A stretch of DNA of 64,000 bases from an uncultured virus (IMG/VR IMGVR_UViG_3300035495_000309). Lineage: Duplodnaviria > Heunggongvirae > Uroviricota > Caudoviricetes. Where the stretch lies: the IMG/VR virus record IMGVR_UViG_3300035495_000309; one strand, written 5' to 3'. Shown here piece after piece: positions 6,469 to 46,523 of the stretch. The position numbers and the translations under genes are program-made. The first letter of the stretch is position 1. The number at the start of each line of letters is the position of its first letter. The notes below the pieces were generated by a model. That model searched no databases. It was not told the DNA's origin and was given only the letters and a program-made list of their open reading frames with translations.

Positions 6469-7641
6469 TAACTCAATGGTCTCCCCATACCGTGAGGTGT
6501 GTAAAAATAACCACTTTAATTGCGGGGACTTTCCATTTCACCAATGGACACATTTTATGTGCCGGCTACGCTTCAACTACCAACTTATATCTGGCGACAG
6601 GATAAGGGCAAAGGGTAACTCCGGAGATATGGTAATCAAGGTTGAAGATACGGACAATCCGCAGCCAAGTCAGAATTAAAATTTTAAGTAACGATTTGAT
6701 AGTTTAAATAGAAAGGAGATTTTTATATGGAAAAAATTATGTGGAAAACTTTAAATGGATTTAAAAATATAATAAGTAACACCTATCAAGTTTCATCACT
6801 CGGTGATGTTAGGATAAAGAAAGGTAAGAAGTTATTACATAAAAAGATTGCAAATAAGAAGCATCACCCATATTATGCAGTTTATCTCAAGAATAAAGAT
6901 GATAAAGGTGAATGGGTTTTAGTTCATCAATTAGTAGCTTTTTGTTTTATCAAAATTCCTAAAAAATATGAAGGAAGAACTGACTTAGTACCAGATCATC
7001 TCAATAATAATGGATTAGATAATTATTATAAGAATTTAAGTTGGAAAACCCGCGGCGAAAATGTATCAAAAGCATTTAAATGTAAAGAAATAAATACATT
7101 TGGTGAAAATTGTTGTTGGGCAATTATAACGGATGATCAAGCTAGAGAAATTTGCAAGTATCTTGAGGAAAACCTTTCTTATGATGAAATATTAAAAAGA
7201 ATGAAAATGGAGGATAATAAATCAAATCGTACGTTATTAGTTCGAATCAAAAACAGGATTGCCTGGAAAGAGATATCAAAAGATTATAATTTTAGTAGCA
7301 ATACCAAGTATACTAAAACACAATTGGAAACGATAAGAAATATTCCTAGAATCAGAAGATTAATCTCTGAGGGCAAAAAGAACACTGAAATTGCACATAT
7401 AATTTGGCCTGAGATTCCACATGAGAAAATCGGACCAAAAGCGCAAACGGTAAGTAAAATTCGAAAAGGGCTAATATTCAAAGATATTCTGAACGGTTCA
7501 ACGACTATCGAAAGCATAATCTCTGGAGAAATCCTTAGATGAAGAAGCGAGTAGAGTAGGGAAACCGAAATGAGTGGCTCTTTATATCTGATAAAAGGGT
7601 ATAAAGATGAAGATATAGTCTACATATAAAATTTATATATG
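6469..7641 (+). mobile_element. Group I intron in dnaB (1173 nt) carrying an HNH endonuclease
   Basis: P1 gggagaT/Gtctccc with U-G wobble; P10 tcaatg pairs the 3' exon start cattga; core motifs ttgcgggga, aatccgcagc, ttcaacgacta, aagatatagtct; terminal G at 7641. Confidence 0.92.
6727..7542 (+). CDS. Intron-encoded HNH homing endonuclease (NUMOD4-like N-terminus, HNH, C-terminal helical repeats)
   Basis: YQVSSLGDVR, VHQLVA..F, PDHLNNNGLDNYYKNLSW; own SD gaaaggag. Confidence 0.88.
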   Translation: MEKIMWKTLNGFKNIISNTYQVSSLGDVRIKKGKKLLHKKIANKKHHPYYAVYLKNKDDKGEWVLVHQLVAFCFIKIPKKYEGRTDLVPDHLNNNGLDNYYKNLSWKTRGENVSKAFKCKEINTFGENCCWAIITDDQAREICKYLEENLSYDEILKRMKMEDNKSNRTLLVRIKNRIAWKEISKDYNFSSNTKYTKTQLETIRNIPRIRRLISEGKKNTEIAHIIWPEIPHEKIGPKAQTVSKIRKGLIFKDILNGSTTIESIISGEILR

Positions 7642-8020
7642 CATTGAAAATAGCGATGTCGTTATTATCATAAATCGAGAAAAGAAATTAGGTTCTGATG
7701 AAGTCTACATGACGTTTAAACTATTGAAAAGACGATATCGTTCCGCTGATACAGATGATAAGTTGCGTGAACTTGAGTATTTCAATCATCCGTATGCAAA
7801 AGGTAGCTCTATCAAGCTTATCAATGATGTGGAACTGGAAGAATCTATTTCTCTTACAAGCTTAGCTTCTGAATTTGTAGCAGCCGACAATAAGGGAAAT
7901 AAGCATAATAAGAATGGTATTAACAAAGAAAAGATTGAAGATGACGATGATGAAGAAGATGGTCTTGATATATCATTTGAACCATTTGATATGAATCGTC
8001 AAGTATATGCAAAAATGTAA
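7642..8020 (+). CDS. dnaB: DnaB-like helicase, exon 2
   Basis: IENSDVVIIINREK...MTFKLLKRRY; in frame with ORF 7709..8020. Confidence 0.88.
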
Positions 8021-8022
8021 AT

Positions 8023-8065
8023 GGAGTCTCGTGTGAGTTATTATCTTGCACGAGACTCTTCTTTT
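8023..8065 (+). terminator. Intrinsic terminator after dnaB
   Basis: gagtctcgtg...cacgagactc followed by ttctttt. Confidence 0.7.
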
Positions 8066-8085
8066 AATAAAAGGAGGATTCTAAA

Positions 8086-8427
8086 ATGAACAGAAGACAG
8101 AAAAAGAAATTGATAGGGAGATTAGGTTTTAAAACCTATCACGCATATAAAGCCTATTTGAAACTCTGTAAAAAGTTTTCAGAGTATTTAAGCCTTGGAA
8201 AGGTGAGGATAAATGGTGTAGGTACTCCACCTGACAGTGTTAAAGGTGAACCTGTTACTATACAATTTTCATGCAATTCGTGGATACCAAAAGGTAAGAC
8301 ATTTGAATGTGTTCCAAATATACTTGAGCTGAAAAAGGCATCAAAGAGTTATTCAATTAGAGTATTAGGAGGTGATCAAAATGAACAAAAGGCAGATGAA
8401 GAAATTCGAAAAGAAGTTATGTCATAA
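8086..8427 (+). CDS. Hypothetical protein with MNRRQKKK leader
   Basis: SD aggagg; 113 aa. Confidence 0.75.
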   Translation: MNRRQKKKLIGRLGFKTYHAYKAYLKLCKKFSEYLSLGKVRINGVGTPPDSVKGEPVTIQFSCNSWIPKGKTFECVPNILELKKASKSYSIRVLGGDQNEQKADEEIRKEVMS

Positions 8428-8971
8428 GACATATCAAGGTTATAAGAAAGCAAAGAGTAAAAAGGATACTGAAGATTTTATTATGATGAATGCATCCATG
8501 TTTGATAAGACGATGAAAGCACTTCTCGCTTCAGCATTTCCTAATAGAGAGGAAGAGATCATTCACAGTGATTATTTGGGTCAGGAATGTACAGCTAGTG
8601 ATGTAGTTGAAATCCGTGAGATGATTCAGCGAATCAATGCTGTAAATAAAAATAAAAACATCTTCGGAGTTCCAAGTCAATTCCTTCTTGGTCCATTACC
8701 AATGGAAAAATTAAATGAGCATCCAAACCCAACAGGTTATGGATTAAAATCATTCTATCAGATCTATGATGAGTTCGAGATGGAACAGCCGAAAGAAGCT
8801 AAAGAAATGATCTATGTAACAACCGATCCAACTGGAAAGGAAATAGTTAGCGCTGCGAAAATGGGAATCTTTGATCCAACAGCTGAAACACTAAAAGATG
8901 TTAAGGCTGAGATTGATAAGGAGCAATTGAAGTCTATATTTGATATTACGATGGAGAAGAAAGATGAATAA
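8381..8971 (+). CDS. Hypothetical protein with MNKRQMKK leader
   Basis: SD ggaggtg before ATG 8381. Confidence 0.75.
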   Translation: MNKRQMKKFEKKLCHKTYQGYKKAKSKKDTEDFIMMNASMFDKTMKALLASAFPNREEEIIHSDYLGQECTASDVVEIREMIQRINAVNKNKNIFGVPSQFLLGPLPMEKLNEHPNPTGYGLKSFYQIYDEFEMEQPKEAKEMIYVTTDPTGKEIVSAAKMGIFDPTAETLKDVKAEIDKEQLKSIFDITMEKKDE

Positions 8972-9269
8972 AAGACAAAAGAAGAAATTAGATAGGAAGC
9001 TGGGTTGTAAGCATTATTCTGATTGCAGAGAAAGGATTTCTAACTTAAGAATTCGAATACGAGTTGATTATAATCCAGATCCACGTATTATTGCATTTCG
9101 TGATGCATTTCATGAAAGTTTGGTAGATCTTATGAACCAATTGAATTATGATTTGGAAAATCCCAAAGATGAACTTCCAGATCATGAAGATACTAGTATA
9201 GAGGAGGATTATCCTCCAGATTCTTTTAAGGTTGATGTCCTTACACATCATCGACCCTTGTATTTTTAA
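8964..9269 (+). CDS. Hypothetical protein with MNKRQKKK leader
   Basis: ATG 8964 overlaps the preceding stop; SD ggag. Confidence 0.7.
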   Translation: MNKRQKKKLDRKLGCKHYSDCRERISNLRIRIRVDYNPDPRIIAFRDAFHESLVDLMNQLNYDLENPKDELPDHEDTSIEEDYPPDSFKVDVLTHHRPLYF

Positions 9270-9321
9270 AGGTTTGACATATCTTTAATACCTAACAGGA
9301 TATAGAAAGGGGTGTTAACAA

Positions 9322-10317
9322 GTGTCGAAGATTATTTTGGATTATTCCAATCAACCGAAGCGACAAAAGAAATCTCTTTTGGATGAATTTGATGAGATGG
9401 AGCAGGAAACACAATCTATGTCATTTAATCAATTTCGACCAAAAGAAGTTAAGAAAGATAAGGAAGCAAAAGCTTTAGCAGAAGCAAATCAGGAAGAGGA
9501 AGACGATGATTGGGAATACACCTTATCCCAGTTTCGTACTCCAAAAGTAAAGGCTTCCAAGAATTACCGAAACAGTGATGTGTATGACTTCTTACACGGT
9601 GGAAGTGGTAAGAAAAAGAAGAAGAAAAAGAAAGAAAAAGAAGGCCCCAAAGATTACAATGAGGAGTTTGAAACAGACATTGCTCTGATGCGTAATATGC
9701 TTCAGGATGCAACAAAGTTTACAGATTCCTTACAGAAGCGTTATTACGCAATGGAGGCTTCGAAATCTTCTGCAAGAGGAGTTGGTAAGTTCACAACAGA
9801 TCTTATCAGTTCCATTAACCAATCTCGTAGTGTATCGAGTCAGCTTATCAATAACATCACAAGCTTAAAGAAGAATATCGCAGACCTTAATATGAAGGAG
9901 CGAAAAGAAGCAGCGGCTGCCGCAGCTGGTAGCTATGATGGAGAGAATCTATCTGATTTCTCTTCCAACTTCTTAAAGAAACTGATTCAACAGGATCGTT
10001 CGGATGCTTCCATTTATGGAGATGCAACACCGATTGATGCAGATGAAGATACATTGTATGACAATATTGCACAAATGCTTGCTTCCGAAGATGATCGTTC
10101 GGAAACAGAAGCATATTTAAAATACGAGAATCGAAATGTTGAACTCGTTGCTTTTGTCGATCATAATACAGATGAGTATGAACTTCGTGCAATTGCAGCA
10201 GATGGAGAAGAATTATCAGATTATCCAATTCCTCAGGTTGAGCATTTGGATATTAACCGAAGTACAAGCATTGCGGTTGATGAATATCACAACCGTTATC
10301 GTGTAGAATGGGTTTAG
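9322..10317 (+). CDS. Hypothetical coiled-coil protein with poly-Lys tract
   Basis: 331 aa, SD aaggggg, ACA-N6-TAA at 9277-9288. Confidence 0.8.
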   Translation: MSKIILDYSNQPKRQKKSLLDEFDEMEQETQSMSFNQFRPKEVKKDKEAKALAEANQEEEDDDWEYTLSQFRTPKVKASKNYRNSDVYDFLHGGSGKKKKKKKKEKEGPKDYNEEFETDIALMRNMLQDATKFTDSLQKRYYAMEASKSSARGVGKFTTDLISSINQSRSVSSQLINNITSLKKNIADLNMKERKEAAAAAAGSYDGENLSDFSSNFLKKLIQQDRSDASIYGDATPIDADEDTLYDNIAQMLASEDDRSETEAYLKYENRNVELVAFVDHNTDEYELRAIAADGEELSDYPIPQVEHLDINRSTSIAVDEYHNRYRVEWV

Positions 10318-10340
10318 ATTTTAATCTAAAACAATATTAT

Positions 10341-10598
10341 GAGTAGAAACCCTCTACTTGAAAGTGTGGTACTTCCAAGTATCTTTAGTTACAGGAAACT
10401 TTTTCCTTAAACAACCCCAAACATTGGCCGACTTCCCAGAGTCGGCCTCTTCTCCCCTCAATCTATTAAGAAACATAGAGTTAAGGCTGTATGTAAGCCT
10501 TATACTTCTGGATGGGGATCTTGTGATCCCAAAACGATTAGTTCCTCTCGGTAAGTCGAAAAAGAGGAGACGGGTACAATGACTCGTCTCCTCTTCTT
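10341..10598 (+). ncRNA. Candidate structured phage small RNA (about 260 nt, about 8 hairpins plus terminator)
   Basis: AACA-N6-TG motif at 10330-10341; stems at 10341-59, 10368-83, 10393-407, 10426-47, 10462-79, 10482-502, 10515-30, 10535-58; terminator 10562-98. Confidence 0.55.
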
Positions 10599-10614
10599 AC
10601 CTCTCATTTTGAAA

Positions 10615-11322
10615 TTATTTCCAAGTAAGTCCATTGATATCAAATCTGATTGGCAAATACTTGTTTACATAAGATTCATAAGTGTAAGCTGAATAGCTTG
10701 CATCTGCTGATCTATAAAACAGATCCAAAACTCCCGCTTCTTTTTCCACAACCTGCTTGATGTCAAGTTTTGCATAGTATTTCTTCTTTGACTTTGTCGG
10801 GTTCAAATTTGTATTTGTAACCATGATAGTTGACAAAGAAGAAACCAAGCTTAACCCTTCTACAGGTCCAAATGCATAACTAGTTCTTACCGGAACGTTA
10901 TCAGGGATCGAGAACGGAAGGTAGAACGTCTTTAAATACAAATCTCTTGTATCATCAAACGAAGCTTTCTGTCCATTCAAACGGATAATTCCCCAAACTT
11001 CCAGTTTTCCACTCCGGTATAAATCGTAATGCACTTCAGCATCCAAGAACGAAGAACCAATCTGCTCTAACGTGTCAGCATCTTCTGTTCCTGAATATCC
11101 TGAATATTTACAAGTAAAAATATAACTTGTTTTATCAATACCATCAATGCCTTCTGCTAATGTCCAACGCTCAGACATCATGGTGAGTTTTTCATCAGCC
11201 TGTACCGGTGTTGTATTGATGATGTCTGCACTATCGACAATTGGAAAGTAAGGCACCATCTTTACTTCACCAGTATCCGGATCTTCATATTTCGTTAATA
11301 TAAATCCATTAAATGCTTTCAT
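10615..11322 (-). CDS. Putative tail fibre/baseplate accessory protein
   Basis: DLYRSGKLEVWG resembles the Y.SG..E.WG motif of tail-fibre C-terminal domains; structural context. Confidence 0.5.
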   Translation of the reverse strand: MKAFNGFILTKYEDPDTGEVKMVPYFPIVDSADIINTTPVQADEKLTMMSERWTLAEGIDGIDKTSYIFTCKYSGYSGTEDADTLEQIGSSFLDAEVHYDLYRSGKLEVWGIIRLNGQKASFDDTRDLYLKTFYLPFSIPDNVPVRTSYAFGPVEGLSLVSSLSTIMVTNTNLNPTKSKKKYYAKLDIKQVVEKEAGVLDLFYRSADASYSAYTYESYVNKYLPIRFDINGLTWK

Positions 11323-11339
11323 TTTCGAATTTCTCCTTT

Positions 11340-12299: not shown

Positions 12300-12412
12300 T
12301 CTTATTCACCTCATTTCATAGTTTACTTTCTACTTAAGTCAATGTTTTTTGCTGCTAAAATGCTTAAAAAACATAGATATAAGCAGAATTAGAAAGGATG
12401 TGAACATGTAAT

Positions 12413-17054: not shown

Positions 17055-17058
17055 CTAA

Positions 17059-18880: not shown

Positions 18881-19462
18881 TTATTTCCCTTCTCCATCTT
18901 CTTTCGCAATTGTAATAATTGGACCAATGGAATGCACGATACTGTAAAGTCCATTGAATGAAATAACAGATGATATTGGAGCAGCTGATGGTTTATGATC
19001 TACACGAGCATATGGTTCCAATAAATAATAGAGTTTCTTCGCTTCGTCTCTATCTCTTGCATTTTGAATGATAAATGAAGCAATAGCAAAGAACGTATCA
19101 TGATCCATATCAGGTTTGATAATAACGACCATTGCTTCAATCACTACATAAATTTCATTTTGAATATGAAACGTGGTTTTCTTCTCTTCAGTATAATACC
19201 AAGCCAAAAGATAAATAAGCGGTGTTATATTATGATTGTAATCAATGGAATCATTACAAATATGCAAATGTACCAACTTCTCATAAAGCTTAATAATTTC
19301 ATACGCTTTCTCAGATGATTTGCGAACCTCTTCTTTTCGTAATTCATGTAAACCATCATCAAGATTTTTCCATACTTCAAATTGTGAGATAAATGCAAAG
19401 CAACTCTGTAGTGTCTCAATATTGACTCTTAGTTTACCAATCATCCCAAGTTCTTCATTCAT
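18881..19462 (-). CDS. Hypothetical helical protein
   Basis: 193 aa, SD aggagg. Confidence 0.7.
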   Translation of the reverse strand: MNEELGMIGKLRVNIETLQSCFAFISQFEVWKNLDDGLHELRKEEVRKSSEKAYEIIKLYEKLVHLHICNDSIDYNHNITPLIYLLAWYYTEEKKTTFHIQNEIYVVIEAMVVIIKPDMDHDTFFAIASFIIQNARDRDEAKKLYYLLEPYARVDHKPSAAPISSVISFNGLYSIVHSIGPIITIAKEDGEGK

Positions 19463-20102
19463 GATTTTCTCCTCCTAATTTAGATAATTTAATTAAAGCA
19501 TAAATACATATTGACCCAATTGAATTTCCTAAAATAACCAGAAATAATTTTATACAAACCTCAGCCATTGGTATTTCTGAGGTCGTGATTAATGCATATG
19601 GAATATCAGCAATACAATGCTCAAATCCAGATAAAATAAATGTCATGATACAGAATACTGTAATGATGGTCTCTTTTGCATAGACTGCAACCATCATGAG
19701 TATTCCACAAAGAATCCCAGCTACAAACATGGTATCATAACATTTTGAAAATTTTGTATCAGCAATCTCTTCCATGGCTATTTGTGTAAGTTCATCCTGT
19801 GCAAAGTACCAGGATACAAAGGTTAAAAATATTCCAATGTAATTACCAAGAAAAATAAAGATATAATCTTCAACACGATGTCTTTTATCAAGTACATATC
19901 CAATTCTTCCTGTATATAACTGAAATCCACATTTGATAATGGTAAGTAGAGCTAAGCTAAATAGCATTGCTCCAATATACTTATTTTCAATAACAGTATT
20001 TGCAATTACTCCAATACCAATTAAACATCCAGAAATCACACTACTAGCATTAACTTTTTCTGGATATGGATCGTTTAATGATTCAAATTTCTTTGTAATC
20101 AA
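19455..20102 (-). CDS. Formate/nitrite transporter (FNT) family protein
   Basis: LYTG, GNYIG, AGILCG.LM..AV, FILSGFEHCIAD, GNSIG signature motifs. Confidence 0.85.
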   Translation of the reverse strand: MITKKFESLNDPYPEKVNASSVISGCLIGIGVIANTVIENKYIGAMLFSLALLTIIKCGFQLYTGRIGYVLDKRHRVEDYIFIFLGNYIGIFLTFVSWYFAQDELTQIAMEEIADTKFSKCYDTMFVAGILCGILMMVAVYAKETIITVFCIMTFILSGFEHCIADIPYALITTSEIPMAEVCIKLFLVILGNSIGSICIYALIKLSKLGGENHE

Positions 20103-21215
20103 GATAACCCGCCTCTTTTCTTCATAATCTGCATTGACCGATGTTTCATAATCATCGCCTGTAACTTCGCTGGCTGAATCGGTAAATCATCATCGGTAAG
20201 ATACTTATTAAAAAACCCTTCTCCATAACCAAATTGATTTAAAAACTTCATGGTTAATTCTTTATCAAAGCATTTGATTTCTTCTTGAATATCAAATCGT
20301 CCATAACGAATCAGCGCTTTATCCAACCTTTCAATATGATTGGTCGTAGCTATATAAATTGTATCATCAGTTGAATAATTCCCATCCAACATCTGGAATA
20401 CCAGATTCTGAGATTCTGTCATACTATTATTTCTTTCAGATGTCGTTACAACAACGCCAGGTTGCATCTCATTTGTTTGATATAATGATTGGACCAACCG
20501 TCTTTTCACGTTCTCTTAAAATTGTAGATAAACCATCTTCTACATCAGTTGATTTGATTATAATGATCGGAGCATTCTGAAACATCGTGCTAATTGCTTT
20601 TACAATCGTACTTTTTCCAGTTCCAGGTTCTCCATATAAAAGAACACCAATCTTATGAATCAAATGGTGTTTCTCATACCAGTCTTTTGAATTCCACCAA
20701 CCATATAATCCAGCTACGAGATTCTTCTTTGTCTCAATCGGAAGCACAATGGAATTCAATGCTCTTGGACTTACTCGGTATATAGAAGTACTTCCATATC
20801 TTCCGCAATTCTTTATTTTAATATCATCATCTGTATTCTCAAGAATTCTCTTTAAAATAACAGAGCGGACTTTCTCTTTATTCTTTCCATAAATAAGCAA
20901 GCATGTCGTTTTATGACTGCTTCCATAATGGTCCTCTAATACAGCACTAACCTCTATCCATGTAAATCTTCCCACACGAATTGTGTAATGTGCACCAGAT
21001 GTCAAATCATAGTAATTCGGATTTACGGTAGGCATTCTATGCTTTTCATACAGCTCTTTATTCATCTTATAAATCACCGCATGAAACTTCTCATATGCTT
21101 CATCAAATTCTGATATTGATATTGTAAGATGAAGCACATCTCTCATATTGTCAATTACTTTGTTAATTTGACTTGTCAGAACATCTGACGTTGACTTTGT
21201 CAATGTGTCTCTCAT
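20099..21215 (-). pseudogene. BCS1-like AAA+ ATPase, frameshifted, Walker B absent
   Basis: 5' ORF has GVLLYGEPGTGKS; 3' ORF has LDG...IATTNHIERLDKALIRYGRFD; frames switch near 20480, where the acidic Walker B should lie. Confidence 0.7.
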
Positions 21216-21311
21216 ATAAAAACTCTCCTTTCCATATTAAAAACTTGTCAAACCTATGATGAAATGCCATTTATTTTCGAAGACTTAATTTTAAAGAAAG
21301 GAAGTGATACT

Positions 21312-21711
21312 ATGGATAATACAAGTACTCCGAAAAATCGGATTATCTGTATTAAAGGACGATATTACGATACTGGTACCAAGAATAAATCCTTCTTGCA
21401 AGTTGCACTGGACTTAAAAACTCTTGGTGTAAAAGAATGGTATTTTATGCTTGAGATCAAAGATCCGTATCTTGTCAATGTAGATCCTTTCAAGACGAAG
21501 AAAGATTCAGATGAACCTGATCTGACAAAAGATCAGATTTCAAGAATCACGATAGAGTGCGTACATAATATCTGGTACTATTTAAGGGAAGTTGTAAGGA
21601 TACCATCTGCTGGTTCTCCAGAAGGCGTTCCTTATATAGCAAACCGTGGAAATATAGCACAAACTTGGTGCTTGTTACACGGACTAGATAGTTGGCTCTG
21701 TTTACCTCGGC
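21312..21711 (+). CDS. terL: Terminase large subunit, exon 1 (join 21312..21711,22033..22479,23646..24988; 729 aa)
   Basis: N.WYYLREVVRIP; splicing restores Walker A LPR-QQGKT. Confidence 0.88.
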
Positions 21712-22032
21712 GAACCTTGTTGCCGCGAAATCCAGCAATGGATTGGAAAAACCTCTTTAACTGCGGGAACGTCTTGTTATGTCTTAACTACCAACCAAGA
21801 GTGGTGACATTCTTGGGGCAAAGGGTAACTCCGGAGATATGGTAATCAAGGTTAAGAATAGAGAAAATCCGCAAGCAAGTATCCTAAGAAATTAAGACGA
21901 AGCTTCAACGACTAGGGAAAGGCAAGTAGAAATACTTGAACCGAGTAGGCTCAATCATAGGGCGAAATGTAGGTGAAATAATCCGAAATGGGAGGCTCCG
22001 AGAAATCGGATGATGATATAGTCTAAGTTATG
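21712..22032 (+). mobile_element. Group I intron terL-I1 (321 nt, ORF-less)
   Basis: P1 cggC/Gccg; P10 accttgtt pairs the 3' exon aacaaggt; P2 aatcca-gcaa-tggatt; core ctgcggga, aatccgca, ttcaacgacta, gatatagtct; terminal G at 22032. Confidence 0.88.
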
Positions 22033-22479
22033 AACAAGGTAAAACAAAGTCAGCACTAGCAGCACAAACATGGGCATATTCATTTGGAACATCTAAGTCA
22101 ACATTCATCTTCATCAATAAAGATGGTGATAATGCAAAGACAAATCTTAGAGATTTCGGTGATATCATATCGTGCTTACCAGTATATTTACGTTACGAAT
22201 CCATTATGGAAGAAGATGGAAAAATTACCAAATCAAAGAAGAGTGCAACACGATATCAGCATCCTGTTACAGGAAATGAAATCGTTGTTCGCGCAAAAGC
22301 TATTTCATATGAAGCAGCACTCGGCATGGGTCGTGGTTTGACTGCACCAATTCTTCATTTTGATGAGGTGGAGTTTACACCATATATCGATGTCATTATT
22401 GAAAACTCTGTATCTACGTTTGAAACTGCATCACGTAAATCAGCGGAGGTCGGAGCAATCTACGGGCGAATACTCACGT
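22033..22479 (+). CDS. terL: Terminase large subunit, exon 2
   Basis: QGKTKSALAA...GRGLTAPILHFDEVEF (Walker B)...GRILT. Confidence 0.9.
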
Positions 22480-23645
22480 TAAATGCGGCGTGATTACAGG
22501 GTGACCTGTAATACAAACCCCTCTAACTGCGGGGACTTTCTAAAAATCTTTAACTACCAACCAAGAGTGGTAACATTCTTGGGGCAAAGGGTAACTCCGG
22601 AGATATGGTAATCAAGGTTAAAGATAGATCGATCCGCAGCTAATCACCCATTTGTGTGAATAATTATCACCACAACTTTTATCTAACGGAGGTGATTATT
22701 CACATGAATAAACTTTTAGAAGAATTTTATAAATTTAAAGAACATGATGATGAAGAATTTAGATTTTTGAAATACCCTGGAATTGTAAAGTATCAATACG
22801 TAATATCTAATTACGGAAAAGTATTCTCTTTTTCAAGAGTAAAAGAATTGAAATTTCATTATGATAAGGATGGATATAAACGAATTGGGATCATTCGACA
22901 TATTGATGGAAAGAGATTAAAATCTCCTGTTGCAGTTCATCGGATGGTCGCAAGTACATTTCTTCCTGAGCATGATGATGAATTGAATGTGGTGAATCAT
23001 ATGGACGGAGATAAAACGAATAATTATTATAAGAATTTAGAGTGGACTACAAGTGGAGAAAATACAAGACATGCATTACGAATGGGACTTCAAGTAAATT
23101 CTGGTGTGAATGCACCAAATGCAGTGTATAATGAAGAAGTAGTTAGATTCATTTGCAAATCCCTTGAATCTGGAATGGACTGTTTTCAAACTTATTGTGC
23201 ATTAACTGGAGAAACAAAGGTTACAAATAACGCTATATATGCATTAGTATTCTCCATAAAATCCGGTAAACGTCATAAAGAAATCAGTTCTGAGTATGAT
23301 ATACCAAATTCTGTTTTATCTCAAACAAAGAAAAGATTCACGAAAGAAGAAGAGGATAAAATAAAAGAAATGATACTTTCAGGTTGTAAAACCACTACTA
23401 TTGTAAAATATTTTGGTGGTAAAACGACAAAAGACAAAATAGGGAAAAGGGTTAGTGATAAAGTGCGAAATCTTCGAAAAGCATTGGGTGTAAGTTCAAC
23501 GACTAGGGAAAGGCAAGCAGAAAGTGCTTGAACCGAGTAGGTCCAATCATAGGACGAAATGTAGGTGAGATAATATCAAGAAACCGAAACGGGGGGCTCT
23601 CTATTTTAGAGATGAAGATATAGTCTAAATAGTTTCATACTATTG
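22480..23645 (+). mobile_element. Group I intron terL-I2 (1166 nt) carrying an HNH endonuclease
   Basis: P1 tcacgT/Gcgtga with U-G wobble; full core motifs; terminal G at 23645; splicing restores ILT-STPGD. Confidence 0.9.
22704..23531 (+). CDS. Intron-encoded HNH homing endonuclease
   Basis: YVISNYGKV, VHRMVASTF, VNHMDGDKTNNYYKNLEW; SD ggaggtg before ATG 22704. Confidence 0.9.
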   Translation: MNKLLEEFYKFKEHDDEEFRFLKYPGIVKYQYVISNYGKVFSFSRVKELKFHYDKDGYKRIGIIRHIDGKRLKSPVAVHRMVASTFLPEHDDELNVVNHMDGDKTNNYYKNLEWTTSGENTRHALRMGLQVNSGVNAPNAVYNEEVVRFICKSLESGMDCFQTYCALTGETKVTNNAIYALVFSIKSGKRHKEISSEYDIPNSVLSQTKKRFTKEEEDKIKEMILSGCKTTTIVKYFGGKTTKDKIGKRVSDKVRNLRKALGVSSTTRERQAESA

Positions 23646-24988
23646 CAACGCCTGGAGACATCGACACTGATGCAGGTGCAAGGGCAGAACAGCTTCTTGC
23701 AAAATGTGCAGTGTGGAACGATTTATTTTATAATAAATCTATAGATGAGTTAAGGGAATTATCTGTTAAAGATAATAAGATGGGAGTATTTTATATGGAA
23801 TACTCTTATCAACAAATTGGATTATCCCTTGAATGGTTTAGAAATATTGCCAATAAAATCAATAATAAATTGGTTGTTCGCCGCGAGATCTTATTACAAA
23901 GACTTCGCGGTTCTTCTAATTCTCCCTATGATCGTGATGATATGGATCGAATCATTGAGCTTGAAAAGAAGCCGATTGAGACGATCATGATCTGTAAATA
24001 CTATCGTCTTAATATCTACGAAAAACTTGTCCGAGGCATCCCTTACATTGTCGGCATTGACTGTTCTACAGGAACCGGTGGTGATAATAATGCGATGTCT
24101 ATCATAAATCCTTATACAACAAAATTAGTTGCGGAATTCGAATGCTCTTATGTTGGTGAGCCTGAATTCATCAGGTGTATTGTAGAGCTTGTAAAGAAGC
24201 ATATACCAAGAGCAATCCTTTGTATCGAGCGTAACTCTGTTGGTGATTCTGTTATTGCATTCCTGATGGAATCTGATATTGCTGGTAGAGTATACTTTGA
24301 TAAGTTTAAAAAACTTGCAGAAGAGAAAATGGATGATTTAAATACAGTAGAATCTGTATTAAAGAAGAAAGCAAAAGAGAAATCTAATTATGGTGTTTAT
24401 ACCGATGTGAGATCTCGTGAAGTCATGTTTAGTATCTTGGCTGATCGTATTAAGACTCATAAAGAGGATTTCGTTGGGCATAATGTCACAAGAGATATTA
24501 CAAAGCTCGTTATGAAAGGAACAAAGATCCAAGCAGCTGTAGGATTCCATGATGACAGTATCATGTCATATCTCATTGGCATGTATGTTTATTATTATGG
24601 AAATAACTTAGAAGTATTTGGATTCTCAAAAGAAGATATATTGTATCAGCAGGAAGAACGAAATACTGGAATGCTTCGACCAGAAGAGATCGATTATTCA
24701 GCATTGCCAGAGTCTGTTATTGATACAGTGCGATTAGAGGTTGAACGACAAAGTAAACCTTCCTATGAAGACATTTACCGAGAAACTCTCATGAGAGAGC
24801 AAGAAAAGACAAGAGCCTTACATAAGAAAGGCTTAATTGATAATGCCGGTTTGGATAATACTCTGGAACCAGATAAAGATGCATTCTTTGATTTTGGTTC
24901 ACAAAACATGGATGCATTTGATGAATTAAATGGATATGATCCAGGGGTTGTATCTGGAAATAACGGAGATGTCTTTGGTGTATTTTGA
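23646..24988 (+). CDS. terL: Terminase large subunit, exon 3 (nuclease domain)
   Basis: YIVGIDCSTG.GGD, LCIERNSVG, HDDSIMS RNase H-fold motifs. Confidence 0.9.
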
Positions 24989-38743: not shown

Positions 38744-38779
38744 TTATCCTCCTTTGTAGTTATTTATCCATTCTCTATA

Positions 38780-38803
38780 TAGATAATATATAAATGAATT
38801 TCA
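38780..38803 (-). promoter_or_regulatory. Early-type phage promoter for the RNAP-subunit operon
   Basis: TGAAATTCATTTATATATTATCTA; preceded by a terminator hairpin at 38813-38843. Confidence 0.75.
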
Positions 38804-38866
38804 GGTATGAAAAACAGAGTGACTCGCTTTGAATCACTCTGTTTAGTAATTTTGTAAGTTGGTTGA

Positions 38867-39790: not shown

Positions 39791-39898
39791 AAGGATTTCC
39801 TCCTTCCTTTGGTTTGTTCTTGCTTAAAGAAATGTATTTTCGATTTCTTGGGATAAAAAAAGAAGCGCAACCATTTCTAGTCACGCTTCTTTCTTCTT

Positions 39899-42292
39899 TT
39901 AACCACGAATAATCGTAAATCCAGTTACGGTATCTCCCTTTGGTGTCTTTACCATCTTTTCAGCTTTTGCTACCCGTGTTGTCACTGGTACATCCTTAAG
40001 CTTCACTTCAACTGGTTCAGACTTTCTCCGGTAAACCTTTACCGTATCTTTCTTCGATACAAAACTTACACCAACCAGGTACTCGTTTGCATCCAATCCA
40101 ATTAATGATAACGGTTCATCCCTTCGATTCATAAGTGGAAGTAACTTTCCTTCAGTCATCTTCATTCTTCCTGCAGATGTGATGTAAAGCAACTTATCAC
40201 ACCCTTTCTCCAAGAAGTCAATTCCAACAACCTTTTCATTTGCACGCAAAGTAATTAAGCTTAATCCTTTTGCATCCTTGCTTTGTCTCTTGATATCTCC
40301 AGCTTTCAAACGGATTCCATCACCAAAGTTTGTATAGATGATAAACTCCTCATCTCCTGCCGGAATTGCTGCAACCAAAGAATCTCCATCATTTAATGTA
40401 ATGGATTCCTTAAAATCTTTGATCTTTGCAAACTCAGACATCTTGACACGTTTACCAATACCATTTGCGGTAACCAGAATGATATCTTCTGTTGATTCCA
40501 TCATGTCATGCTCGTTTATGATTGCAATTGGTTCTCCAGTTGCTTTGAAGTATCTGGATAACTCAATTCCTGGATCATCTTTATCCATTACTGGAATTGA
40601 TGATACACCGACACGACTAATTCTTCCTGAAGAATCGAAGATCAACAAGTTATCTCTGTTTGAAATCACTGTAACGATTACCTGAGAAGTCTTTCCTACA
40701 GTTCCAATGGATGGAGATCCTGTAATGTCAAGCTTCTTGATATATCCATCTTTACTGATTCCAATCAGATGTTTTGTATTCGGAATCTTCTCTTTTACCT
40801 TTCCAGCTTTGATCACCTGGGATCTTCTCGGACCACAGAAAAGTTTGATTGCTTCTTCTAATTGTCCGATGATGACTTCATCAACAGCAGCGTCATCTTC
40901 CAGAATCTCTGTGAACTCTTTGATGTTTGCTTCGAGCTCTTTCTTACGCTCTTTGTATCCAGCATAGGCATCCTTGGAATACTGGTAAGTACGCATTGCC
41001 GCAAGAGTCTTTGCCTGAAGTGATGTGATTCCGTACTCTTTCATGAAGTTCTTTTCCATGTCTTCTCGGTTTCTTGCACTCTTTGCAATCTTGATTGTCT
41101 TAGAGATATTCTCTCCATTGAATACAAACAAGAAGACTTCGTTCATATGATGTTCGGATAATGCATCCATGAGCTTCTTATTGTAGATTGCCCTGACACA
41201 TTCTCTCCGGTACTCAATCCACTCCAAAAGAAGTGCCTTTGTACCAAATACTTTTGACTGAAGATCTTCGATACAACGAATCTCTACTGCATAAGACTTC
41301 TTTAAGTTCGTACGCTTCTTCATAAGCTTTTCAACGAACTCATCTGGATTCTCATCCTTCTTAAGTAAGAACTTAAGCTCTACTCTGTCTTCTGCGGTAT
41401 TATCGTGAATATCAATCAGTCCGTCCAAATCTCCATTCTTTGCTTTTCTTGCATCTACCACAGCTTTGATGACCTGCTCTACAGAAATCTGAAGCGGTAA
41501 AGATGTTACAGTGATGACATTTTCAATGTAGTCAATCTCATAAGTTGCCTGCATTGTTAATGTGACATCATCACCAAACTCATTCAATGCTTCAAAGTTT
41601 CCAGTATCTACAATATCACATCCTGTCGGAGAATCCGGAATCAGAAGAATCTTTGCGTTTGGATCTTTGATTAGCTTGATCGTTGCTTTACAGACTTCCG
41701 TCGGATTAAACGGTGGAATATTTGTTGCAAGTCCAATGCCAATTCCTGAGAACTGTGGATTACAAAGGATCGTTGGAATACGAGCAGGTAAGTAATCCGG
41801 CTCTACACTATCTCCATCATAAGTAGGTCTCATTGGGACATTGGAATCTTTCAGATCACTGAAGAAGATCCAGTTTGCAGCTCTACTCAATCTTACCTCA
41901 GGATAACGTGGATGTGCCGGAGCATCGCCTCGTACATTTCCAAAGTTTCCCTGCGGGTCTACATACATGATATTCTGTGCCCAACTTGAGCCCATGTTAT
42001 AAATTGTATCTGATACTGACGTATCTCCATGAGGATGAAACGCAATTGTATCAGCGGAAGCTCTCGCTACCTTTCGAAACACCAGACCATGATTCGGATT
42101 TGTATGAAGTGCATATAATGCTCTTCTTGCTACTGGTTTTAATCCATCAATCATATTTGGTGACATTCTTGCAATATTTACATTTGCACCAAATATAAGA
42201 AGCCACTCTTCTGAAATGTCTGCGACATTCCGTTCGTTTGCTTCTTTATGCTTCATATTTGCAACGTCTTTATTTACTTTTTTCTTCGCCAT
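39899..42292 (-). CDS. gyrA: DNA gyrase/topoisomerase II subunit A
   Basis: DGLKPVARR, FHPHGD, QGNFG, catalytic PRY, GIGIGLATNIPP, C-terminal pinwheel-like repeats. Confidence 0.95.
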   Translation of the reverse strand: MAKKKVNKDVANMKHKEANERNVADISEEWLLIFGANVNIARMSPNMIDGLKPVARRALYALHTNPNHGLVFRKVARASADTIAFHPHGDTSVSDTIYNMGSSWAQNIMYVDPQGNFGNVRGDAPAHPRYPEVRLSRAANWIFFSDLKDSNVPMRPTYDGDSVEPDYLPARIPTILCNPQFSGIGIGLATNIPPFNPTEVCKATIKLIKDPNAKILLIPDSPTGCDIVDTGNFEALNEFGDDVTLTMQATYEIDYIENVITVTSLPLQISVEQVIKAVVDARKAKNGDLDGLIDIHDNTAEDRVELKFLLKKDENPDEFVEKLMKKRTNLKKSYAVEIRCIEDLQSKVFGTKALLLEWIEYRRECVRAIYNKKLMDALSEHHMNEVFLFVFNGENISKTIKIAKSARNREDMEKNFMKEYGITSLQAKTLAAMRTYQYSKDAYAGYKERKKELEANIKEFTEILEDDAAVDEVIIGQLEEAIKLFCGPRRSQVIKAGKVKEKIPNTKHLIGISKDGYIKKLDITGSPSIGTVGKTSQVIVTVISNRDNLLIFDSSGRISRVGVSSIPVMDKDDPGIELSRYFKATGEPIAIINEHDMMESTEDIILVTANGIGKRVKMSEFAKIKDFKESITLNDGDSLVAAIPAGDEEFIIYTNFGDGIRLKAGDIKRQSKDAKGLSLITLRANEKVVGIDFLEKGCDKLLYITSAGRMKMTEGKLLPLMNRRDEPLSLIGLDANEYLVGVSFVSKKDTVKVYRRKSEPVEVKLKDVPVTTRVAKAEKMVKTPKGDTVTGFTIIRG

Positions 42293-42307
42293 TTTTCAAT
42301 CACCTCC

Positions 42308-42706
42308 CTAACGAAGCGGCATGTCAGAATGATCTGATAAATGATCAATCTTCAAGTCATCTTTTATACCTTTTGCAACACAGACGATGATTGTAGAATA
42401 CCCTTCGTATCCACCATCTTCTCCTGCTCTAGTAGATAATGTATAAATCAAAAATGCATCCATTGGCCCTTTCGGGAAGTTATCGATTGCATACTGTGGA
42501 TACAACGTCAAGTCTGTATCTACACGTAAATATTTCTTTGGAACAATAATCTTCGGATCGTCTGCTTTACGATCTGTGTCATATTGTAATGGTTCCAAGC
42601 TCCCAGAGGGGTCATGATAAATGACCCCTAATTTAATCTGAGAATTCGTGGGAGCGAGATAAAGTCTATGAAGTATTATAAGTTGTTCTCTTGTATATCT
42701 TGCCAT
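42308..42706 (-). CDS. Hypothetical protein between gyrB and gyrA
   Basis: SD gggaggtg before ATG 42706. Confidence 0.7.
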   Translation of the reverse strand: MARYTREQLIILHRLYLAPTNSQIKLGVIYHDPSGSLEPLQYDTDRKADDPKIIVPKKYLRVDTDLTLYPQYAIDNFPKGPMDAFLIYTLSTRAGEDGGYEGYSTIIVCVAKGIKDDLKIDHLSDHSDMPLR

Positions 42707-42720
42707 TTTAAACACCTCCC

Positions 42721-43628
42721 TTAATTATCAAGATCATCACGACGAATCTTATATCCTTCAAACATCGCTTTTCGTTGTTTCTGATAAGCTGGTTTGTCGG
42801 ACTTTAACTTGTTAAAGATCTCGATATCTCGTTCGATGTCTCCAAATGTAAGTCTTACTAAACTACGCTTCTCCGGATTTAATGTAGTATCCCAAAGCTG
42901 ATCTGCATCGGCCTCTCCTAATCCTTTGAAACGTGTCATAATCTTTGGTGTAAGTCTTGATGTTCTGTCTAAGAACTCCATAATGGTAAGCTTCTGCTCT
43001 TCCGCATCTTTCTCTTTACTGAAGACTTCATAACCATATTTCTGTACAACTGGTACAAGGTCATTGATCTTATTAACAAATCTCTGATTGATGTGGAGAC
43101 GAACAACGCCACCATTTACAACACCTTTGATTACATTCTTCTCCAGATTTACTTCTGGATATTTCTTCTGTACAAACTTCATGAAATCACGAACAAATCC
43201 AGACTCACTTAACTTCTTCTCAATGAGAAGATGACTTGTTGTATTCGTTCCAGGAACTACCATCTTCTTTTCGGTAATACCACCAAAGATAACGAGTCCT
43301 GCAATCACAACTTCAATGAGTCCACGATCAATCTTATAGAAATCATAAAGCTCTTTAATTGTGGAAAGATAGTCAATTGTGTCATAAAGGAACTGCCACA
43401 AATCTGACTTATTCATATAATCAGACTTCGGGTAATTAAGGCGTACCTTATAGAACTTGACAATCTTCTTCATACAGATTTCCGCAAGCTCCATTCTATT
43501 ACCAATAAACGGATGCTCAGTATCTGCAATTCTGTAAAGAGGAGGGTATACCTTATACAGGAATCCCTGCTCGACTATTTCTGGCATATACCGAACATGA
43601 AATCCGGCAATACCAACTCCAATACCAT
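42721..43628 (-). CDS. gyrB: DNA gyrase subunit B, exon 3
   Basis: (Y)GIGVGIAGFHVRYMPEIV...PPLY...RFKGLGE...LWDTTLNP. Confidence 0.9.
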
Positions 43629-44076
43629 CACTTGTGTTAATCTTAATATCTCTATTAAGGTCAGACTATATCTTCATTTACTATATCCTGTTACCAGATA
43701 TAATAAAGCTTGCTGTTTCGGTTTGTTTCAACCTACCTTTCGCCTGCTATCTTAGGCCTACTCGCTTCGTGTAAGTATTTCAACTTACCTTATTTTCAAA
43801 CCAGCTACAAATGTATTTAGAGATTTCTCTCATCCTGGTTGTCTAGCTTTCCCTAGTCGTTGAAGTCATATCTCATCATTGTGAGATGTTTCCTTGCGTC
43901 GATTATCTGTATCTTCAACCTTGATTACCATATCTCCGGAGTTACCCTTTGCCCTTGGACTGTCACCATTCCAAGTTGGTAGTTGAAGCTTAACCAGCAC
44001 ATCTTAGATGCGTTTACCTGTCACGGTAAAATTTCCCCGCAGTTAAGCAAGTTTTAGACGAACTATGGTCTCCAGA
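43629..44076 (-). mobile_element. Group I intron gyrB-I2 (448 nt, ORF-less)
   Basis: P1 gacggaT/Gttcgtc; P10 accat/atggt; full core; P9 cttaata-gaga-tattaag; splicing restores DADIDG-YGIG...RYMP. Confidence 0.9.
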
Positions 44077-45332
44077 ATCCGTCGATATCCGCGTCAGTGG
44101 ATATAATTATCTTGTTATAATACAGACGTCGGATATCAAATGACTGCCCAATTCCAGTATGAAGAACTCTGACGTATTGCTTCCACTCTCCATTCTCCAT
44201 AATCTCTGGAAGTGATTTCTTAAAAGCATTTGCAGTAACTCCACGGAAACCAAAGATTGCCTGAGTAGCTGCATCTCTACCATTAACCATGGAACCTGCA
44301 GCTGACTTTCGTCCCTCAATGAGGAACAACTCTTTGTACTTGTTTCCGGTGTTGTTGCACTTGATAAAGTTCGCTAACTCGTACTCTGCAAACGTATCTA
44401 CTTTCTTCGATACATTTACTGACTTTGCTTTCTGTAACTCTATTCTTGCTTTTGCATTTGCTTTTACTACTTTAATGATTGCCTGTAATCTTGCCTGATC
44501 ATTTGCAAAGAAGTCTGTTAATGCTTTCGATGTCATATCTTTAAGAACTGGTCGTAAGTTCTCATTCTGGATACGATTCTTTGCATTACCCATGAATTGT
44601 ACCTGGGCATTTGTAGACAGATTTACTACAAGCTTTAATCCAGCTTTTACATCCTGGAATAAGATGGGTGTCTTTGCTCTTTGTGCTTCTGATAAGGAAT
44701 CTCTTGTTTGCTGCTGGAAATACCGGCAGATGACTTCCTCTACAGATTCAACATGAACACCACCATCATCAGTTTGTGTGAAGTTACAAAAAGACCTTTC
44801 GTCTACTTCCATTCCCTCATCATAAGCGAATGCAAATGAAAGACTTACCTGCTTTTTCATCTTTTCTTTCTTCGTCTTGACTTTTCCATTGTCATCAACG
44901 ATGTTTCGTTTAATCTCCTCTACGATATTCTCTTTCGCAGATAAAGAGATTGGTTGTACAATGAGATCCTTTGGATTTTGGATATAAGAGAAAATCATAT
45001 CCGAAAAATCTTTTCTCTTAATGGTTTCCTTCTTAATAATCTTAAGACCTTCCCATTCCTCCAAATGGAACTCAATATTGTAATCAAGCTGGTAACTCAT
45101 AAGAGTAACCCACTCTCTTACTTTGTCAAAAGGAAGATGACTTCCAGCACCAAGATATATAGGATTCGAAATGAATGATACGATGGTACCATGTTTCTTT
45201 CCTTTCTTAGTTGGGATTCCTTTGGTATCTCCTACCTTCTGACCATCTTTAAACTCAATCTTATGATAGTAATCACCACGATAAGTTTCAAGTGAGAAAT
45301 AGCTACTAAGTGCGTTTGTAACAGTGATGCCG
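44077..45332 (-). CDS. gyrB: DNA gyrase subunit B, exon 2
   Basis: GITVTNALS, GGVH, ELFLIEGRKSAAG, TDADIDG. Confidence 0.92.
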
Positions 45333-46523
45333 CTCCTATTTCTAGGATAGACTATATCATCAATTATATATCCTATTACCAGATATATCATTGCCTCCCG
45401 TTTGGGCATATTTCAGCCTACATTTCGCTCTATTATTGAGCCTACTTGCTTCGTGTAGATATTTCAATCTACCTTATTTTCAACCAGCCTACAAATTGTA
45501 TTTAGAGATTTCTCTCAATGCTGATATCTAGCTTTCCCTAGTCGTTGAACACAACAGAAATAATTATCAGCGATTTACAGATTGCATGGATTTATGATTT
45601 ATATTTTTCATATCAATCACCTTTCCTTTAGAACTTATATTCTTTACTGATGCTTACCCAAGTTTTTCTTTGTTTGATAGAGTAAATTATCGTCATAGAT
45701 ATCCCTAGCTTTTTCGAAATTTCTTTAGCTGTTTTCCCTTTCTCCAACAACTTACAAATTTTCTTTACCTCCTTTACAGAGACTTTAGCCATAGGATTTT
45801 CTTCACCTATCAACGCTCTTGTATCATTATCTCTTGGAAAATAGTACTCCTTAGAAACACTCTTCCAAATCGTACCATTTTTAATTTTAGAGATATATGA
45901 TTGATTGACTTGCATCTTCTTTGATATTTTTCCAACTCGAACTTCATTTTGAAGCATTTCACAAATCTCACGTACAATCTTCTCATCTTTCAGGTTTCCT
46001 TTCCTCAAATGAGTCCTATACGCATGATGTGTATTTTCTGCTGATGTTGACCAAGTCAGATTATGAATGTCTGGATTATCCTTATTTCCATCTTCATGAT
46101 TTACTTCAGGATAATTATTAGGATTTGGAATAAATGCCTCGGCAACGAGTCTATGGACTTTCCTTGTATATTTCTTTCCATTAAAAGTAAGAGATACAAT
46201 CCTGTATCCATTTTTATCCAAACCACCAGCCATCTTCTTTCCAGTTTCTGCAATAAATACATAACCGGGAGATGCAATCTTGTATTTAGTTTTACATCCG
46301 TTAATATAAATCCATGCTTCTTTGTAATCTAATACTATACTCATAATTTTTCTGTCTTCGTTGCGTCGATTGATCCAACTTCAACCTTGATTACCATATC
46401 TCCGGAGTTACCCTTTGCCCCAAGAATGTCACCACTCTCGGTTGGTAGTTGAAGCTTACGGATTCGTCCCCGCAATTAGAGAGGTTTTGGCATATGCTTT
46501 TCAGCATAAGGGTGCCTGTGTTA
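45333..46523 (-). mobile_element. Group I intron gyrB-I1 (1191 nt) carrying an HNH endonuclease
   Basis: P1 ggtgT/Gcacc; full core; P9 tccta-gaaa-tagga then terminal G; splicing restores SGEFGV-GITVTNALS. Confidence 0.9.
45628..46344 (-). CDS. Intron-encoded HNH homing endonuclease
   Basis: VHRLVAEAFIPNP...VNHEDGNKDNPDIHNLTW; two C-terminal HTH-like repeats. Confidence 0.9.
   Translation of the reverse strand: MSIVLDYKEAWIYINGCKTKYKIASPGYVFIAETGKKMAGGLDKNGYRIVSLTFNGKKYTRKVHRLVAEAFIPNPNNYPEVNHEDGNKDNPDIHNLTWSTSAENTHHAYRTHLRKGNLKDEKIVREICEMLQNEVRVGKISKKMQVNQSYISKIKNGTIWKSVSKEYYFPRDNDTRALIGEENPMAKVSVKEVKKICKLLEKGKTAKEISKKLGISMTIIYSIKQRKTWVSISKEYKF

Follow-up and report, generated by a model that had tools for sequence, protein, structure and literature searches.

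Group I introns that carry genes for HNH or other endonucleases are known from several bacteriophages, e.g. from td, nrdB, and nrdD of T4, from Twort, and from the DNA polymerase genes of SPO1 and SP82 (the I-HmuI intron). Here, we analyzed a 64,000-nucleotide (nt) stretch of DNA of an uncultured Caudoviricetes virus (IMG/VR record IMGVR_UViG_3300035495_000309; this whole stretch is referred to as the window), in which the genes for a DnaB-like helicase (dnaB), the large terminase subunit (terL), and gyrase subunit B (gyrB) are interrupted by five elements (I1 to I5) sharing an identical 38-nt segment (the 38-mer). The evidence makes it probable that these elements are self-splicing group I introns of a single lineage, in which the 38-mer forms an intrinsic RNA tertiary module of a P5abc-like domain. 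They resemble the introns of T4, Twort, and SPO1 in their presumably self-splicing core, which has extra helices in the interval from P7 to P3′, in the placement of an open reading frame (ORF) in a peripheral loop, in encoding I-HmuI-like HNH enzymes, in their insertion into conserved motifs of DNA-metabolism genes, and in the presence of several related introns per genome. The family described here differs by adding a large P5abc-like three-way junction to P5, by its copy number (at least 10 per genome), and by its targets, i.e. terL, gyrB, dnaB, and genes of a multisubunit RNA polymerase.

Phages whose essential genes hold numerous group I introns are already known, and it is the variant peripheral domain that is worth specialist attention. 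In the report on the Jug phages (PMC12880540), 2513 introns were counted in 136 of 139 genomes (~18.5 each), and 37 of 76 predicted introns had metatranscriptome support. The same report describes features also found here, i.e. many introns per jumbo genome, terL in two to three pieces, abundant HNH endonucleases, and a gut metagenome source. Jug genomes are given there as 360-402 kb with introns of ~206 nt on average, whereas the genome studied here has ~258 kb and its ORF-less introns measure 321-448 nt and bear a P5 extension. One group I and one group II intron are present in an RNA polymerase gene of AR9 and PBS1 (PMC12350094), PhiPA3 reportedly has an intron endonuclease (PMC11620839), and a preference of introns for conserved active-site residues is an established idea (PMC12908238). 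A literature search on P5abc in bacteriophage group I introns gave papers none of which, judged by title and abstract, reports such a domain in a phage intron; this is not proof of its absence.

Bacillus phage vB_BspM_Internexus (Takahashivirus, AR9-like; L104, MW749003.1), whose group is among the nearest cultured relatives at ~30% protein identity, contains the core words AAACCTCTTTAACTGC... and GGTTCAACGACTA of the present family in a split DnaB gene. Two of its loci (3201-3486 and 4965-5290) matched the Rfam group I model RF00028 (Intron_gpI), the two scores being 81.4 and 67.4 bits. The Internexus introns differ from those of the window in having a short P5 hairpin and no P5abc-like domain, as well as in their insertion sites, which are the Walker A motif and the position of residues 381-401 of the window DnaB, compared with residue 449 for I1. 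In the Internexus record, DnaB is annotated as three separate coding sequences without intron annotation.

Exact copies of the 38-mer were found on the (+) strand of the window at 6606-6643, 21816-21853, and 22582-22619, and on the (-) strand at 43917-43954 and 46383-46420, in agreement with the coordinates and strands of the initial annotation. No further copy with up to three mismatches was present in the window, and no match occurred in 100 dinucleotide shuffles of it (0 expected by chance). The similarity among the five elements exceeds the 38 nt, as the alignment extends over ~170 nt in the 5′ direction and ~130-200 nt in the 3′ direction. Searching the window with nhmmer half-profiles returned exactly five matches to the 5′ half (E 7e-41 to 8e-34) and as many to the 3′ half (E 1e-38 to 3e-13), correctly paired, and nothing beyond these pairs at E<=10. 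The two halves reached E values of 8e-34 (5′) and 3e-13 (3′) in I1, and of 4e-38 and 1e-29 in I3. The earlier assignment of the five elements to one lineage of group I introns was upheld.

When the exons were joined by script, all spliced frames were open, giving a DnaB of 574 aa, a TerL of 745 aa, and a GyrB of 843 aa. The joins aligned without gaps to uninterrupted homologues, i.e. the BpSp helicase (I1), the TerL proteins of BpSp and JD-Fnp4 (I2 and I3), and the GyrB of Staphylococcus phage UFV_DC4 (I4 and I5). At three of the five joins, PHROG profile positions continued from one exon into the next, namely at I2, which is flanked by positions 6-116 and 118-179 of phrog_32359, and at both gyrB joins, where phrog_543 matched the three exons in order (positions 69-152, 157-521, and 575-637, the first two flanking I5). 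The Pfam Toprim match ended at the exon end at the I4 site. Boundaries that had been set independently led again to the five exon joins of the initial annotation, i.e. GAWEI/IENSD, PR/QQGKT, ILT/STPG, GEFGV/G, and DADIDG/Y, and both the profiles from PHROGs and Pfam and the homologue alignments place each insertion within a conserved enzyme motif, in support of that annotation. We take these motifs to be the P-loop and the ILT|STPG motif of TerL, the GEFGV|G lid and the TOPRIM DADIDG|Y motif of GyrB, and the GAWEI|IENSD motif of DnaB.

A pairing script, together with direct reading of the sequence, supported a guide matched to its own exon in each intron: P1 consists of 4-7 contiguous bp in all five introns, with a guide differing by site. 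The terminal intron base is G in five of five, and four introns (I1, I3, I4, and I5) have a U.G wobble at the 5′ splice site. I1 combines a P1 of 7 bp, with U.G at the splice site, with a P10 of 6 bp; I3 has a P1 of 6 bp with a U.G splice pair; and I4 has a P1 of 7 bp with U.G and a P10 of 5 bp (AUGGU/ACCAU; read from the sequence) that is separated from P1 by a single unpaired A. For I5, P1 was read from the sequence as GGUGU/GCACC with U.G, followed by a P2 hairpin. P1 of I2 is short (4 bp), and its P10 is unusually long (8 bp; window 21706-21726 and 22033-22040). A C-G splice pair together with a short P1 and a long P10 is also present in the orthologue of I2 on another contig (L016).

Some alternative boundaries and pairings were rejected. 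Other splice registers of I2 were discarded, as only an exon end at C21711 and a last intron base at G22032 yield the terminal G, the 8-bp P10, and the sequence PRQQGKT. An end of I4 at 43642, as given by Rfam, would result in 18 instead of 14 residues from DADIDG to MPEIVE, or in a stop codon; G43629 fits without a gap. For I5, the script preferred an 8-bp pairing in which one P2 hairpin strand takes part and the splice pair is U-A; in relatives with an intron at this site, a U.G P1 precedes P2. In an alternative fold of I5 (window 46495-46531, (-) strand), the 5′ exon end could pair over 8 bp with the P2 strand, which would hide the splice site.

Covariation in the core was assessed for 52 hand-placed pairs in 20 ORF-less family members (1025 cells). 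Overall, 94.8% of the cells were paired, compared with 84.3% after column shuffling and 34-46% with slid partners, and compensatory changes were seen in 24 of the 52 pairs. P3 was 100% paired (compensatory in four of six pairs), P4 100%, and P6 98%, while P7, which forms a pseudoknot with P3, was 99% paired with two compensatory pairs. P8, which was outside the pair count, is visible when I2 is folded as a single sequence and also in the alignment to RF00028. The ~70-160 nt between the 5′ strand of P7 and P3′ hold extra helices (P7.1/P7.2), also present in the I2 fold, and by eye these hairpins change on both sides between copies, e.g. CAAGUA/UACUUG vs CAGAUA/UAUCUG. Judged by these extra helices, the core architecture resembles that of subgroup IA.

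Fourteen IMG/VR contigs carry the exact 38-mer, with 24 distinct contexts in total. RNAalifold on these contexts placed it in a P5 extension, at a three-way junction, and the minimum free energy (MFE) fold of one copy contained the same junction (-22.4 vs -15.8 +/- 2.8 kcal/mol shuffled, z -2.36; 3 of 200 shuffles as good). Going inward, the domain begins with an outer P5a helix and continues through a proximal helix (AACU/GGUU), an asymmetric bulge (AUCAA), and a distal helix (ACCA/UGGU) to the three-way junction, from which a long P5b hairpin (GUGA loop in I2) and a small P5c (GGG/UCC) emerge. The 38-mer runs from the last P5b base to the end of the proximal helix and comprises the junction strand, the P5c hairpin, the 3′ strands of distal and proximal P5a, and the A-rich asymmetric bulge. 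In an alignment of 50 sequences including diverged relatives, 85.4% of the cells in the domain were paired (70.2% shuffled, 34-47% slid), and 21 of 27 pairs were compensatory: nine of nine in P5b, eight of ten in outer and proximal P5a, three of four in P5c, and one of four in distal P5a, the rest of which was invariant. Changes within the 38-mer included C-G to U-A in distal P5a (14 of 50 sequences), G-C to A-U or C-G in P5c of diverged relatives, and joint changes of positions 36-38 with the 5′ strand. The P5b loop is G-N-R-A in 49 of 50 sequences (exception L160), and the bulge of the P5a 3′ strand, AUCAA, reads AAAAA in diverged relatives. Positions 14-21 of the 38-mer (e.g. window 21829-21836) form an 8-base palindrome, CTCCGGAG, which the supported fold divides between P5c and the junction; being adjacent, its two halves are unable to pair within one strand and could pair between two intron RNAs.

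In the Tetrahymena large-subunit rRNA intron (subgroup IC1), P5abc is a self-folding buttress of P4-P6 in which the non-helical bases are most constrained, and P5abc-type elements usually stabilize the ribozyme unaided, replacing the need for a protein. The Tetrahymena domain resembles the present one in that it extends P5 and forms a three-way junction, with a GNRA loop capping P5b, a P5c of small size, and an A-rich asymmetric bulge in the 3′ strand of P5a. The present introns differ in their IA-like core and in a further segment that separates P5c from the distal P5a strand, and the likeness may be due to homology or convergence. Because the anatomy of a three-way junction with GNRA-capped P5b and A-rich P5a bulge matches a P5abc-type domain, we read the 38-mer as an intrinsic tertiary module.

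Conservation was examined in 35 distinct sequences that had been anchored on flanking words only, using the 28 positions of the 38-mer left unconstrained by this procedure. Diversity at these positions was 0.061, compared with 0.46 for the P5b stem and 0.57 for the outer helix, i.e. the 38-mer was ~8 times less variable than the adjoining helices. Free variation in relatives, which the initial annotation had named, together with efficient unaided splicing of all five introns, as speaking against a shared splicing factor, was thus not observed. Its description of the segment as invariant held in so far as conservation in relatives is strong, but was too strict, with 11 of the 28 free positions varying in one sequence or another (chiefly those of the bulge, P5c loop, and closing pairs) and with a single mismatch in one intron copy of the same genome (L087). 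A scan anchored on a P7 word gave 58 occurrences, for which 450 nt upstream were inspected: 10 had the exact 38-mer, two had one mismatch, one had four, 11 had a homologous domain with 9-12 changes, and 34 had nothing at up to 12 mismatches within these 450 nt. Among the 34, some P5 regions lie beyond 450 nt owing to an ORF, some have a short P5 hairpin, and a few have a more diverged domain. The 69 loci of a scan anchored on only two flanking words comprised 26 exact copies, 15 with 1-5 mismatches, and 28 unrelated segments (>=15 mismatches). For a 29-nt core that spans positions 2-30 of the 38-mer and allows Y at position 14, we obtained 63 matches (61 on metagenome contigs and two on GTDB contigs of metagenome-assembled genomes, MAGs) with 59 distinct 190-nt contexts, the full exact 38-mer being present in 25 of the 63. 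The P5abc-like domain is accordingly a module found in part of a wider intron family, where its evolution proceeds by compensatory change; in the clade of the window, it is almost frozen. The two GTDB matches (L163 and L164) were on an Oscillospiraceae MAG contig and in the assembly of Clostridium sp. CAG:452; they are either mis-binned phage contigs or a hint of gut Clostridia as hosts.

An IMG/VR fragment (G001; CheckV 29% complete) had 94% of the sampled words of the window and the same five copies. In a near-identical IMG/VR contig of 257.7 kb, all five contexts were identical over 318 nt, and gene order was collinear with the window. This contig has additional introns at five loci (L006, L024, L028, L087, and L107), of which three contain exact copies, L087 the copy with one mismatch, and L107 a diverged P5 domain. 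The genome thus has at least 10 family members, and the count of five reflects the limits of the window. One gene matching phrog_2986 'RNA polymerase beta subunit' harbors two of the additional introns. L006 and L028 each follow a very short open frame (46-48 aa) and are ~5 kb apart, which suggests one gene with several introns. Of the five longer upstream exons, four were named by PHROGs and none was matched by Pfam. The nearest cultured phages, at <=30% protein identity, were Bacillus jumbo phages of the AR9/PBS1/BpSp type, Staphylococcus jumbo phages, Listeria phage LPJP1, and Fusobacterium phage JD-Fnp; megablast of the terL region against cultured phages gave no match.

Reading of the 5′ flanks showed that at least 14 insertion sites are used across at least 14 related contigs, with terL-a, terL-b, and the gyrB lid being common to several genomes. 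A core tree was calculated from the 5′ and 3′ halves of 23 cores (the 24th context was dropped, as no 3′ half was found). In approximately unbiased (AU) tests, for which the same-site groups had been chosen after inspection of a preliminary tree, monophyly of same-site cores was rejected for terL-b (p 5.8e-5) and for the gyrB lid (p 0.012), indicating that site switching or core exchange has happened. Also, the seven introns of the window's genome included in the tree did not form a clade. P5b was near-identical in I2, I3, I5, and L006, a sixth intron of the same genome, but differed at orthologous sites elsewhere. This pattern is compatible with introns having moved to new sites throughout the clade, with copies having exchanged sequence, or with both processes. 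A spread by retargeting of the guide, as originally proposed, is therefore supported in part, by the number of sites and by the non-monophyly of same-site cores, but it concerns the clade rather than this genome alone.

The ORFs of I1, I3, and I5 are predicted to encode I-HmuI-like HNH homing endonucleases. For the I3 ORF, the Pfam domains HNH_3 (29.9 bits) and NUMOD4 (26.9 bits) passed their cut-offs (the scan used the longer ORF 22656-23531), and PDB entry 1U3E, 'HNH homing endonuclease', matched with E 2.9e-14. The I5 ORF likewise passed with HNH_3 (28.4) and NUMOD4 (25.3) and also matched HTH_3 (24.9 bits), while in the I1 ORF HNH_3 (18.6 bits) and NUMOD4 (18.3 bits) were both under the gathering cut-offs. 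The three ORFs are pairwise 27-32% identical (I1 vs the others 27-29%, I5 vs I3 32%) and hence far more diverged than the RNA cores, from which it follows that the introns are not recent whole copies of each other.

In the favored explanation, the five elements are self-splicing introns with a tertiary module in common. They are located in dnaB (one), terL (two), and gyrB (two) of an uncultured jumbo phage with a genome of ~258 kb, and each has a pseudoknotted P3-P9 core with IA-style extra helices between P7 and P3′ and a large P5 extension. The end of its own 5′ exon pairs with the internal guide (P1), often joined by the 3′ exon in P10, the last intron base is G, and splicing would restore the conserved motifs. 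The data show the introns as such, where they begin and end, how they fold at the secondary level, and how conservation is distributed, while self-splicing and a tertiary role of the 38-mer are inferred from these. At the DNA level, the HNH enzymes of I1, I3, and I5 may move the introns. The bases of the 38-mer would owe their near-constancy to tertiary contacts that buttress the P4-P6 domain, and its identity among copies could have arisen from shared descent and exchange between intron copies, making a trans-acting protein unnecessary. Several points weigh against this explanation. That the five introns splice is what we infer from their sequences, and the splice-site pair of I2, a Watson-Crick C-G, departs from the near-universal U.G. 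The likeness to the Tetrahymena P5abc appears to be a structural one. Within the clade with the exact 38-mer (24 contexts), P5c and distal P5a do not covary; their freezing exceeds the needs of helix maintenance and would also fit a sequence-specific ligand, e.g. a protein. The MFE of the whole I2 was not clearly below that of shuffled sequences (z -1.15; 13 of 100 shuffles as good), and in view of this weak thermodynamic support we relied on covariation.

A further point of this kind is the result of the group I model search that had been suggested as a check along with the initial annotation. At gathering thresholds (50 bits for RF00028), Rfam gave no match anywhere in the window. I2 reached 47.5 bits (E 5.5e-9; full model 1-253, match 21702-22038) and I4 reached 41.3 bits (E 4e-7; whole model, match 44118-43642), both below the gathering score, and the ORF-bearing I1, I3, and I5 were undetected at E<=1. 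The remaining eight of ten rows in E-value mode were microRNA, snoRNA, and sRNA models (E 0.22-9.7) and were taken as chance. Relatives with the common P7 16-mer but a short P5 hairpin scored 67-82 bits with RF00028. As relatives free of the P5 insert reach these scores, the core of the family belongs to RF00028, and the sub-threshold scores in the window are best explained by large inserts and ORFs.

The identity of the 38-mer might be a matter of history only, i.e. of recent copies or gene conversion, with the segment under no special constraint. The distribution of near-identical P5b versions would agree with this, as would the non-monophyly of same-site cores, which fits copy exchange. We nevertheless consider it unlikely, as the 38-mer persists where the adjoining helices differ at about half of their positions (0.46-0.57 vs 0.061), conversion tracts would homogenize the flanks as well, and the low identity of the ORFs argues against recent whole copies. 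An action of the segment as DNA, e.g. as a recombination or endonuclease site via the 8-bp palindrome, is hardly credible. Although CTCCGGAG is contained in all exact copies, and the repeats occur in both orientations over 40 kb, the changes in relatives obey RNA pairing, including the joint changes of positions 36-38, the segment has a constant place in the RNA fold and in every case lies on the sense strand of its host gene, and the gene order of the window is the same as in the 257.7-kb contig.

The initial annotation had suggested another explanation, namely that the 38-mer may serve a shared splicing factor and place its host genes under one splicing control. As a common platform, it could be bound by a protein, of the phage or of its host, with the task of assisting or gating the splicing of all members, thereby coupling genes of replication, supercoiling, packaging, and transcription. 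Such a factor would account for a sequence-specific conservation that extends even to helices, with P5c and distal P5a fixed in the 24 exact-copy contexts and their neighbors saturated with compensatory changes, and for the presence of the same module in all of the at least 10 introns that a single genome carries in its essential genes. Group II introns offer a precedent, as one intron-encoded protein reportedly aids several similar introns. However, no candidate protein was identified, the anatomy is that of a self-folding peripheral RNA domain, and the segment does vary, at 11 of 28 free positions in some relative. Moreover, close relatives without the P5 extension are ordinary RF00028 members, which shows that the core does not depend on the P5 domain. 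With the 38-mer mapping to a covarying P5abc-like three-way junction, a common splicing regulator, striking as it would be, is currently an unsupported claim, and we judge the platform model to be quite improbable. Even less should be expected of a version in which the near-invariant junction is the recognition element for a trans factor, either a protein or an RNA pairing via the CUCCGGAG palindrome, that tunes at least 10 introns as a genome-wide splicing checkpoint; this seems to us very improbable.

Seen as intron-containing, dnaB, terL, and gyrB of this phage clade are intact genes and not pseudogene fragments, even though all five introns are missed at the standard Rfam threshold. With dozens of introns that combine one peripheral domain with many guide sequences, the family constitutes a natural data set. 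It is suited to the study of a P5abc-like module on a phage-type core and of the arrival of group I introns at new sites. The coordinates of the introns, their domains, ORFs, and host genes are compiled in Table 1.

Table 1. Introns, P5abc-like domains, predicted endonuclease ORFs, and interrupted genes in the window
Feature	Position	Strand	Details
Intron I1	6469-7641	+	1173 nt; in dnaB-like helicase gene; join GAWEI-IENSD
Intron I2	21712-22032	+	321 nt; ORF-less; terL Walker A motif; join LPR-Q-QGKT
Intron I3	22480-23645	+	1166 nt; in terL; join ILT-S-TPG
Intron I4	44076-43629	-	448 nt; ORF-less; gyrB TOPRIM motif; join DADIDG-Y-GIGVG
Intron I5	46523-45333	-	1191 nt; gyrB ATP-lid region; join GEFG-V-GITVTNALS
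P5abc-like domain of I1	6568-6651	+	matches domain of I2
P5abc-like domain of I2	21779-21861	+	38-mer (21816-21853) is the 3′ two-thirds
P5abc-like domain of I3	22545-22627	+	matches domain of I2
P5abc-like domain of I4	43909-43991	-	matches domain of I2
P5abc-like domain of I5	46375-46457	-	matches domain of I2
Predicted HNH homing endonuclease ORF of I1	6727-7542	+	in P6 loop; 3′ end overlaps P7 strand
Predicted HNH homing endonuclease ORF of I3	22704-23531	+	in P6 loop; ATG at 22704 preceded by GGAGG
Predicted HNH homing endonuclease ORF of I5	45628-46344	-	in P6 loop; C-terminal helix-turn-helix repeats
dnaB-like helicase gene	5123-8020	+	exons 5123-6468, 7642-8020; Pfam divDNAB and DnaB_C; phrog_19
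terL gene	21264-24988	+	exons 21264-21711, 22033-22479, 23646-24988; phrog_32359, phrog_2 'terminase large subunit'; tblastn matches phage terminases
gyrB gene	42721-46891	-	exons 46891-46524, 45332-44077, 43628-42721; Pfam HATPase_c, DNA_gyraseB, Toprim, DNA_gyraseB_C in order over three exons

We also noted some features of neighboring genes. An AAA/MCM-like ATPase (20099-21215, (-) strand) is distributed over two ORFs overlapping by 41 nt, with Pfam AAA positions 1-35 and 76-129, respectively. No match to an intron half-profile was found there, and the split could have arisen by frameshifting, from an error in sequencing, or through some other intervening element. The ORF at 19455-20102 (-) matches the formate/nitrite transporter family (PF01226, E 1.4e-22), an unusual phage cargo. 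A tubulin/FtsZ-family protein, as in jumbo phages bearing PhuZ, is encoded at 48713-50026 (-) (PF00091, E 5e-15). Finally, the split gyrB is adjoined by an uninterrupted gene for GyrA (39899-42292, (-) strand).

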